Shown: piece after piece, positions 20,901 to 23,900 of the stretch
Layout: the number at the start of each line of letters is the position of its first letter
How positions within the stretch are numbered: the first letter of the stretch is position 1
DNA from: a virus
Taxonomy: Duplodnaviria > Heunggongvirae > Uroviricota > Caudoviricetes
DNA length: 28,751 nt
IMG/VR virus record: IMGVR_UViG_2531839664_000032
Strand: one strand, 5' to 3'
Position numbers: made by a program

Positions 20901-23900
20901 TCTCTCACCGGTATCAACAATTAACCCAATCTCCATCAGGTGTCGTAAGCTGTCCTGCACAGTCTTTTTGTTCAGTTCCGTTACTTCTGCCAGTGCAGAT
21001 ACAGACGGGTATGCACACAAATCGGCACCGCACATATCAGCAAGCCAGGTCAATACTGACTTACTGGATGAACTGCCGGTTTTCACCTTTTTAGCCCATC
21101 GTAGTGCATCGATACTCATACGAACCCCTGGCAGACATTTGTTTATCTGCAAAGTAATATTGGTATTGCTGACGATACGCGTGCTTGAAAGCAATAGCTT
21201 TTTCTATAAGCTCGTCAGTCTCACGTTCCACAACAACTGGATCCGCAAAAAGCAGCCCGGACTCCACCACATCGCCATATTCTTTGTTTAACCCGGCGAT
21301 CATGTACGTAATGCTTTTTCCGTCAGTAATTTCACAATACAATCTGAAATCGCTGATCCGGATAGCCTCCATAATTGCCGGAATCTGCGCCGTGAATTTG
21401 TCACGCTTATCTCTGGTGTCGATAGCTTTCCAGCGTTCGAATATCTTCACCCGGTTAACGCCCAGCGCCCGTTGATCAACCTCGCCATCATTAAACGTGA
21501 CGCGTTGAACATCGATGTTCGGGCGTTCTTTCAGAGCCCAGAATGCTTCCGTGATTAATATCGTCGCCTGCTCCTGTGTCATTCCTGGTCGGCATACCCA
21601 GGTATCCAGAGCCTCACAAACCTGTTCAGTGGTGATTTTCATTGTTCAACCGCCCCGCCCGCTTTGCCTTACGATATTCGTCATAAACTTTGGGGTCGTA
21701 CTGAAGTTCCCCGCCGGATGCCTCTTGCAGGCGCATCGCGCGACCTTCAGGAACCAGTTCCCCCCATGCAGCAACGCTTGCCAGCCTAACTCCTGCGACA
21801 TTGGCAAGCTTTGTTTTGCTGCCAAAAAACGCTATAGCATCAATTTTCAACATATCGAACCCCTTAGATTTTCCTAAGAAAACTAGATCGTAGAGAAACC
21901 TAAGTCAAGAAAAATTAGAATTACCTAATATGAAAAACGAAACCTTCGGTGCTCGCCTCTTATACAGGCGAAAAAAATTAAAACTGTCTCAGGCCGCATT
22001 AGGTAAGCTGGTCAAAGTGGCTCACGTAACAATTTCTCAATGGGAAAGAGATGAAACACAGCCAGCGGGGAAGAGATTATTCGCACTGAGCCAGGCGCTT
22101 CAGTGCTCGCCGACTTGGCTTCTTTTTGGAGATGAAGATAAGCAACCAGGCGAACCGATCCCAGATAATCAGCCAGTCAATCTGACAGAAGATCAAAAAG
22201 AGTTGCTTCAACTGTTCGACGCACTGCCTGAGTCAGAGCAAAAGGCTCTGTTGTCAGAGATGCGTGCTCGAGTTGAGAATTTCAACAAACTTTTTGAAGA
22301 ACTACTCAAAGCTCGCAAAAGAAGCGCAAATAAATAACCCCCCTTTTTTTCGCAACTCTCTGTAATAAAAAGCACAAACTTTCAAATACTTGTGTTTTTT
22401 ACATCAAGAAGCTTAGGTTTTTCTACACAAAAAGCTTGACCATAACTCTTAGGTTATTCTAAATTCTACTCATCAAGACACCGCACGGTGTTCTCAGCAA
22501 ACAGTTCCGCTACCCGGCGTTAAGGGGAAGCAGAGGATTTCTCAGTGGGCGAAGTCAAACATCAGAATGGAAGGCGTCCAGGGATCAGCAAAGAAACAGC
22601 GATGGCGCTTTATATTGATATCAGCGCCATTGCCGGACAGGTAAGAGTTATCAGAGCGGTAACTAAGCGGTATGCGCCTTTACTTCAGAAAGTCTCTGGT
22701 GAGTGCACCGAAGATATTGTCAACGATTTCGTCATCGAACTGCGAGGACTCATCTTCAGTTACAAGGTGACCACAATTTTTGCAGATGGCTCCCGCGAAA
22801 CTGTCAGAGCCCTGCGGCTTAAAGGATGTGTCAAAGACTTAGCCACCACATTCTGGGCAAGAAAACTTGATTGTATTCATAACCAATTTCCTCTCGAGTA
22901 ACAGACCCCTCAGAGGATACCACCTCGCCTGACGTGGTTAAAAAGCAGGCAACGCTAACCACAAGGAGCCGACATGCAGAAACGAGACCCCGTCATCATC
23001 GCGCCAGACTATACCGATGATGAACTTTATGAGTGGATGCACCAGAAAATTAAGGCGGTGCAGGACCTGAAATGGGCCAATGAAGCCAGGGCTAAGCAGG
23101 CTGAAAATCTGTCCGCTCTGGAGCAGGATATCACCAATCTGGAAAAAGCAGCGGCATTAAGCATTGCCAGAATGATTACATACCACGTTAATAGCTAACC
23201 AACGAGGCTAATAATGGAATTTAAAGATTTACCAACGCCATTACAGGAAATGGCATCGAATATAGTTCGTTCACAACTGGCTACTCTTGACCTTAGTACC
23301 GCAGAAAAAGAAACCATCGATAATATGGTTCGTAATGTGCGCAATGCTTTTTCTGGGCTATATGGTTCTGATAATCAAAAGCAGGAAAGCGATGTTAATA
23401 AACGGGTAATTTCTGTTTGCGTGAATGGCCATGTTCTTTCATCAATCAAAACAGAAACGGCGACAGTCTTCGATTGCCTTTGCATTGTACAGAGCCTTGT
23501 TGATGCCCTGTTTCGTTCAGTGAATTTAGAAAATGATGCAAATCTGCGAGGGCGCATAATAGCACATCCATATGCACATACTTTAGGCTCTGTGGATATC
23601 AAAGATCCCACAAATCTTTAATGAAATAGTTAACGCGAATTGTACTTGCTCTTTCGGTTGCTTTCAGAATACGCGTTGAAACTGCTGGCGGTAATTTGGT
23701 ATTCCATTTATTAAAATCATGCCCGGGAAAGTACTCTTCGAAAATACTTTTAACTGCAGACTCGCCTATTGAAATGCTGCTTACCATGCGATTTTGATAA
23801 AGGCATTTAGCAATAAGAGTTGATTTTAACATTCACCCTCCTGAGGGTTGGTAATTAAGGAGTTCTCCACGGGTGAAGTGGAGTGCGTGCGCCGGACACG

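Follow-up and report, generated by a model that had tools for sequence, protein, structure and literature searches.

The early control region of the IMG/VR virus record IMGVR_UViG_2531839664_000032 (28,751 nt, referred to as a whole as the window) raises the question of how far the reach of its repressor extends. The repressor gene dicA lies divergent from dicC, which encodes a Cro-like protein, and is followed by the promoter of an operon that contains dicF and dicB. An inverted repeat, CTTAG-N6-CTAAG, recurs at both early promoters, and the original prediction was that a single repressor controls both the immunity switch and the downstream operon. Sequence comparison supports this proposal, in that the core of the repeat is that of the operator Oc of the K-12 Qin prophage, the layout is that of Qin, and the arms of the repeat co-vary with the repressor at both promoters. 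Five sites were found, and these are very probably the operators of a P22/Qin-type immunity switch in which DicA would silence both early promoters. The two regulatory genes and the five sites are the following.

21626–21853, minus strand: dicC, Cro-like repressor of 75 residues; Pfam P22_Cro (E = 3e-13); annotated as DicC in RefSeq
21930–22337, plus strand: dicA, repressor of 135 residues; Pfam HTH_3 (E = 4e-14); 63% identical to K-12 DicA
21863–21878: O1, CTTAGATTTTCCTAAG; the only perfect copy and the positional homologue of K-12 Oc; lies just 3′ of the predicted −10 of the dicC promoter (PdicC) and spans the predicted start site of dicC along with its ribosome-binding region
21889–21904: O2, CGTAGAGAAACCTAAG; one mismatch; lies in the PdicC spacer and overlaps two bases of its −35
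21914–21929: O3, ATTAGAATTACCTAAT; two mismatches, both at the outermost positions; a perfect 16-bp palindrome with an exact core, abutting the dicA ATG
22412–22427: distal downstream operator, CTTAGGTTTTTCTACA; two mismatches; ends 8 bp upstream of the −35 of the dicB-operon promoter
22448–22463: proximal downstream operator, CTTAGGTTATTCTAAA; one mismatch; spans the promoter spacer and reaches four bases into the −10

The exact CTTAG-N6-CTAAG sequence occurs once in the window (21863–21878, with 0.02 occurrences expected), and four degenerate copies lie near it, beginning at 21889 and 21914 in the 76-bp gap between dicC and dicA and at 22412 and 22448 after dicA. Two copies at each promoter had been claimed; the motif is indeed shared and non-random, but the count is three plus two, with one copy exact and the rest degenerate. 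O1 and O2 are spaced 26 bp apart and O2 and O3 25 bp, or about two and a half helical turns, and the downstream pair is 36 bp apart. A spacing of 25–26 bp would let proteins bind side by side along the same face of the helix, as in other lambdoid operators. The central six bases of the five sites are A/T-rich (ATTTTC, AGAAAC, AATTAC, GTTTTT, and GTTATT), and O2 and the distal downstream site are 93% complementary.

The frequency of the motif elsewhere in the window, which bears on whether the sites could be fortuitous, gives a divided answer. Matches with at most two mismatches number nine across the 28,751 nt, equal to chance (mean 9.4), but their placement is far from chance, with five of the nine concentrated in 209 bp (binomial P = 2.5e-9). 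Furthermore, when the two AT-rich intergenic stretches were shuffled 20,000 times with dinucleotide composition preserved, three sites never arose in the first stretch (0/20,000), and two sites arose in the second in 0.55% of the shuffles. A core-exact match at 9916–9929 lies inside an open reading frame (ORF) of 441 residues with no partner site and was treated as chance. The K-12 papers mention three sites at the dicB promoter (dicBp), of which only two clear ones are visible in either genome, and a search of the alignments of relatives for a third conserved operator upstream of 22412 found none.

The relation of the sites to the transcription signals was defined from the following predicted elements.

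21903–21908, minus strand: predicted PdicC −35, TTGACT
21880–21885, minus strand: predicted PdicC −10, TAGTTT, 17 nt from the −35; assignment uncertain
21916–21921, plus strand: likely dicA −10, TAGAAT, inside O3 and 8 nt before the dicA ATG
22366–22401, plus strand: likely dicA terminator, a 12-bp A/T-rich hairpin with a T-run after it; the RNA folds at −9.2 kcal/mol (z = −3.6)
22436–22441, plus strand: dicB-operon promoter −35, TTGACC; the counterpart of lambda PL
22460–22465, plus strand: dicB-operon promoter −10, TAAATT, with an 18-nt spacer; best match of the promoter scan

On the dicC side, O1 starts one base beyond the predicted −10 and O2 fills the spacer. Most loci of several operator types, K-12 among them, have AGTCAA at the position of the −35, with AGTAAA instead in a subset. 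Of the −10, the relatives compared retain the A at position 2 and the T at 6. In K-12, dicA is transcribed as a leaderless mRNA (PMC4681348, Fig. 2A), and since there is also no room for a Shine-Dalgarno sequence beside O3, the dicA mRNA of this prophage is likely leaderless as well. O3 thus probably sits on the dicA promoter, as does OR3 of lambda. At the downstream promoter, the TTGACC hexamer occupies the same place in K-12 and is conserved in relatives, and the K-12 −10 (TAATCT) is placed identically with respect to its operator. The two downstream sites had been described as overlapping a −35-like element, which does not hold for the best promoter match: the sites flank its −35, the proximal one beginning 6 bp past it and lying on the spacer and −10. 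The terminator, which would shield this promoter from read-through, was missed by a consensus terminator scan because its stem has too few G-C pairs; relatives feature hairpins of other sequence with T-runs at the same position.

The connection to DicA comes from K-12, where the Qin operator Oc (TTGTTAGTCATAACTAACAA) confers repression in vivo that requires dicA and is restored by a DicA plasmid (PMC3441716; Yun et al., 2012). A single A-to-C change in the right arm abolishes Oc activity (PMC3441716). The motif core, TTAG-N6-CTAA, is the Oc core, and all five sites retain the critical A. In K-12, a 10-fold decrease in DicA raises dicC expression 700-fold (PMC3441716), and deletion of dicA derepresses dicBp 22-fold (PMC10448788). 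These genetic data show that in K-12 both promoters are under one repressor. A passage of PMC10448788 that cites Béjar 1988 also states that both Qin intergenic regions have operators like those of lambda PR and PL. The window contains the elements of such a module, namely a short helix-turn-helix repressor divergent from a P22 Cro-like protein across a 76-bp gap, an operator with the Oc core beside dicC, copies of it at the downstream promoter, and an operon that carries dicF and dicB.

Comparative evidence was drawn from more than 40 related loci encoding DicA, taken from species-representative genomes, viral contigs, and annotated E. coli and phage records. Across these loci, the arm sequence varies with the helix-turn-helix of DicA and DicC, and does so at both promoters. 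The classes are as follows.

CTTAG...CTAAG: DicA helix-turn-helix LSQAALGKLVKV(A/S)HVTISQWER (SQAALGKLVKV...SQWER); E. coli, Klebsiella phage, Pantoea, Enterobacter, and Erwinia
GTTAG...CTAAC: DicA helix-turn-helix LTQRE.ARLAGVAHVTISQWER (TQRE...SQWER) and the K-12 type; E. coli and relatives
(A/G)TTGAG...CTCAA: DicA helix-turn-helix ...S.SSISLWES with DicC ...SAVSQW; E. coli AHB5, Buttiauxella, and others
TTTAG...CTAAA: DicA helix-turn-helix LTQRELGKAVGVAHVTISQWER; Rahnella

The outermost arm base follows helix 2 of DicA, with DicC almost unchanged between the CTTAG and GTTAG classes, and the operator core follows the recognition helices of both proteins. The list amounts to a small recognition code that relates helix residues to operator bases. 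Three of the contigs that carry DicA loci (L014, L019, and L020) are labelled as Collinsella, Bacillota, and Veillonella metagenome-assembled genomes. Near-identity of L014 to K-12 Qin, and of L019 and L020 to E. coli AHB5, suggests that these are mis-binned E. coli contigs.

Conservation among closer relatives follows the sites. Among 34 variants of the downstream region with the same DicA (96–100% identity), both 16-mers and the −35 are nearly invariant, and the six positions between the −35 and the proximal site (22442–22447) are hypervariable (ataact, acaatt, acccac, gcccac, and atatgc). This hypervariability could reflect neutral drift or tuning of promoter strength. In more distant loci, the distal operator forms an island of conservation. 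In the divergent region, the O1 arms are invariant in 67 close relatives, and only one of the 13 polymorphic positions falls within the 30 arm positions (hypergeometric P = 0.008). O2 is conserved in every locus with the repressor type of the window.

Taken together, these features suggest how the switch would operate. A DicA dimer would bind each site with helix-turn-helix domains that are close relatives of the one in P22 C2, each monomer reading one outer arm, (C)TTAG, with the A/T-rich centre not read directly. O1 would be the strongest site, and at either early promoter the promoter-proximal sites would keep RNA polymerase out. With O1 and O2 occupied, over the start site and spacer of PdicC, dicC would be off; occupancy of O3, by excess DicA or by DicC, would turn dicA off, since O3 contains the −10 of the leaderless transcript. 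At the downstream promoter, which would drive ydfC, dicF, dicB, and the unknown genes, the motif would bracket the −35 and cover the −10. DicC probably reads the same sites with another order of preference. Within this scheme we infer occupancy, affinity order, cooperativity, and the exact transcription starts. A Pfam scan of DicA gave no match to Peptidase_S24, and the protein lacks a C-terminal autocleavage domain. Induction would accordingly proceed through an antirepressor or a DicA/DicC flip as in Qin, where derepression occurs via the Rem antirepressor or a spontaneous DicC-dependent flip and not via RecA (PMC10448788).

Several observations weigh against this assignment. Measured from the predicted dicA start, the three intergenic sites have their centres at about −57, −31, and −6, positions unlike those of lambda OR. 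More distant loci of the same type conserve all 76 bp of the gap, so the arms do not stand out there. Seven close relatives carry T21884C, which disrupts position 2 of the predicted dicC −10 (on the minus strand, TAGTTT becomes TGGTTT); the −10 is misassigned, or else the dicC promoter is weakened in those prophages. In addition, the Reg-Seq authors (2020) rated the evidence for a DicA site at K-12 dicB as low and gave its binding location as unknown. A literature search for an experimentally mapped DicA site at dicB, or for a study of the O157 operators, found none, and the O157:H7 DicC study is without site mapping. Finally, the weaker intergenic sites of K-12, Om and Oa, showed no DicA binding when tested alone in vivo (PMC3441716). 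By analogy with these two sites, O2, O3, or the distal site may need cooperativity, serve DicC only, or be inactive.

The K-12 result is also what lends weight to the idea that only the strongest sites function (O1 and perhaps the proximal downstream one), the other three being relics or promoter sequence. O2 and the distal site each have one off-core arm (GTAG, CTAC), and GTTAG-type loci have only a single arm at the O2 position, both of which fit this idea. Nevertheless, it appears rather unlikely: O3 combines perfect symmetry over 16 bp with the exact core, the variant arm (CTAC/GTAG) is the same at O2 and the distal site in loci of several genera, the distal site is nearly invariant despite its drifting flanks, and the intergenic spacing fits side-by-side binding. 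That the repeats are merely a chance similarity of AT-rich promoter regions, or promoter elements only, is scarcely credible. The window-wide count at two mismatches does equal chance, and the proximal site overlaps a −10 that would be conserved for its own reasons, but the observed clustering was never reached in composition-matched shuffles, and the arms switch with repressor type at both promoters where the −35 hexamers stay recognisable. The 34 downstream variants, with their invariant 16-mers and hypervariable intervening bases, contradict this explanation as well.

A different alternative accepts the sites and changes their reader, with DicC as the main protein that recognises them and DicA confined to O1 or to some other sequence. 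The DicC helix-turn-helix does co-vary with the operator core type, and DicC overexpression lowers dicA expression in O157:H7, according to the literature. However, this alternative is very improbable, as the outermost base (C or G) follows helix 2 of DicA where DicC is nearly constant, the function of Oc in K-12 required DicA and returned with the DicA plasmid (PMC3441716), and deletion of dicC leaves K-12 dicBp activity unchanged (PMC10448788).

The operon behind the second promoter begins with an ORF of 118 residues that belongs to the ECs_2282 family. The original prediction placed dicF and dicB in this operon, and both are found downstream.

24167–24216, plus strand: dicF; full-length Rfam match (E = 1.4e-7; 43.5 bits against a gathering score of 48)
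24391–24579: dicB, 62 residues; annotated in the O157:H7 genome

DicF was missed by Rfam at gathering thresholds and recovered in E-value mode, and default Rfam annotation would therefore overlook it. The window contains three further Rfam matches to other RNAs.

14489–14611, minus strand: isrC small RNA; strong match, 150 bits
16901–17050, minus strand: sok, the antitoxin RNA of a hok/sok module; also a strong match, 104 bits (the annotation of the corresponding O157:H7 prophage includes hokD)
24205–24410, plus strand: STnc100; weak match lying between dicF and the dicB start; 32.5 bits, below the gathering score of 47, and probably not significant

The gene order in the annotated O157:H7 homologue and the near-identity of the region identify the window, by sequence, as a lambdoid prophage that resides at ompW in Shiga-toxin E. 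coli. A 1.35-kb region around the operator sites is 100% identical to a stretch of the chromosome of E. coli O121 strain RM8352. Its identity is 99.6–99.8% with O157:H7 genomes as well as with records that bear the name ‘Enterobacteria phage PPompW’; the annotated O157:H7 genome used for comparison is 99.6% identical over 1,351 bp. In that genome, replication genes and a YdaT-family gene are followed by dicC, the divergent helix-turn-helix repressor, a hypothetical gene, ydfC, further hypotheticals, dicB, a DUF1482 gene, and then exonuclease, excisionase, integrase, and ompW. Among 5,426 complete E. coli genomes, about 520 contain 80% or more of the queried region. The operator sites define the control region of a prophage that is common in Shiga-toxin E. 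coli and that serves in some strains as the landing site for Stx2a phages.

Directly after the downstream, PL-type promoter, and within the same regulatory module as the operators, lies a second conserved element.

22471–22537, plus strand: conserved leader RNA comprising a hairpin (ACACCGCACGGTGT), the conserved sequence GTTCCGC, and a stem of 4 bp (CGCT/GGCG)

The leader probably forms one hairpin and a small H-type pseudoknot, in which the CCC of the stem-loop is complementary to a GGG 4–5 nt downstream. Its conservation extends over different operator types and several enterobacterial genera and does not depend on which gene comes first in the operon. The loop-tail pairing co-varies among loci (CCC/GGG, GCCG/CGGC, CCG/CGG, GCC/GGC, ACCC/GGGT, and CCCT/AGGG), as does the stem (CGCC/GGCG versus AGCC/GGCT). 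In an alignment of 20 sequences, 85.5% of cells pair, compared with 28–41% when the partners are slid, and none of 500 shuffles reaches the observed co-variation score. Two points count against the structure: the aligned sequences are related to one another, and the energy of the single-sequence fold is ordinary (z = −0.65 relative to shuffles), so that the argument for the structure is one of co-variation alone. No Rfam family matched the leader in an E-value scan of the first 2.6 kb of the operon, comparison with HK022 putL gave no similarity, and a covariance model found no second copy in the window that would correspond to putR or nutR. Literature searches found no paper on the RNA at 22471–22537 and none that treats dicB, ydfA, and antitermination together.

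Lambda nutL and HK022 putL occupy the corresponding position after PL. The leader could act as a protein-independent processivity or antitermination element, with a role like that of putL or nutL, or alternatively could govern how the early-left transcript is translated or how stable it is. Two variations on this position were seen in relatives. In Superficieibacter electus (L021), a stretch sharing ACGGCAATGCT with HK022 putL lies about 100 nt upstream of the leader, between it and the promoter, and a put-like RNA and the pseudoknot element may coexist there. In distant DicA-type loci of Yersinia, Rahnella, and Phytobacter (L024, L027, and L028), the position of the pseudoknot is taken by GTTCTGAC and, after it, a hairpin whose loop reads GAAAG(A) and which resembles lambda boxB.

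The operator allele indicates which DicA-type prophages in one cell can cross-repress, and O157:H7 carries several dicF loci. The swap of the outer bases, C...G for G...C, may suffice for heteroimmunity to Qin-type prophages in the same cell. That this swap confers heteroimmunity and that the leader is in addition a cis-acting RNA, working in antitermination and processivity or in translation and stability, is as a joint proposal tentative and on balance doubtful. The allele also shows what to mutate in order to free expression of dicF and dicB, with effects on cell division and phage resistance.

Among known systems, lambda OR is similar in having a three-site operator between divergent genes with one site over the repressor's own promoter. 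Lambda also has a second set of operators at its leftward early promoter and a leaderless repressor mRNA, the same layout as here. There is no sequence relationship between the two, the second promoter has only two clear sites here, and the positions of the lambda sites relative to the repressor promoter differ by about 12 bp from those of the prophage. K-12 DicA bound to Oc activates dicA (PMC3441716); with the sites shifted in this way, such self-activation could not copy the geometry of lambda PRM. Induction would likewise differ from that of lambda in not involving cleavage through RecA.

The relationship to P22 is closer. The first 69 residues of DicA are homologous to the solved N-terminal domain of P22 C2 (PDB 1ADR and 2R1J; E = 1e-21), with identity in QAALGK of helix 2 and ISQWER of helix 3, DicC falls in the P22_Cro Pfam family, and the operators of both are symmetric with an A/T-rich centre. 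The half-site of P22 is TTAAG, which resembles the CTTAAG arms found in some relatives, whereas the arm in this prophage is TTAG. In P22, the helix-turn-helix of the repressor contacts the outer bases of symmetric operators, and the centre is not contacted and is read indirectly, with A-tract centres bound best (PMC4267663). The proteins differ in that C2 has 216 residues with a LexA-type C-terminal cleavage domain; the 135-residue DicA has no such domain for autocleavage at an Ala-Gly site and for dimerisation; K-12 DicA is likewise without it (PMC10448788).

Qin is the closest counterpart. Both prophages have the gene order dicC, dicA, promoter, and then ydfC, dicF, and dicB. In both, the best palindrome begins 67 bp before the dicA ATG, next to dicC, and a second core-exact site abuts that ATG, with AGTCAA (TTGACT on the dicC strand) between them. 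A TTGACC −35 downstream of dicA is bracketed by two sites in each, and the transcribed leader that follows is near-identical, indicating that the downstream promoters of the prophage and Qin are homologous. DicC is 83% identical between the two, and DicA, at 63%, has another helix 2. Furthermore, the outermost arm base is G...C in Qin and C...G here, the middle intergenic site is a poor match there and a good one here, the operon begins with ydfA-ydfB there and with the ECs_2282-family ORF here, and this prophage retains replication genes, unlike Qin. For Qin, this architecture has been on record since 1988, with the main operator validated in 2012, and the established picture of the switch is unchanged by these findings. 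What is new in this prophage is the specificity allele, with its C/G outer bases, good middle site, and P22-like helix 2.

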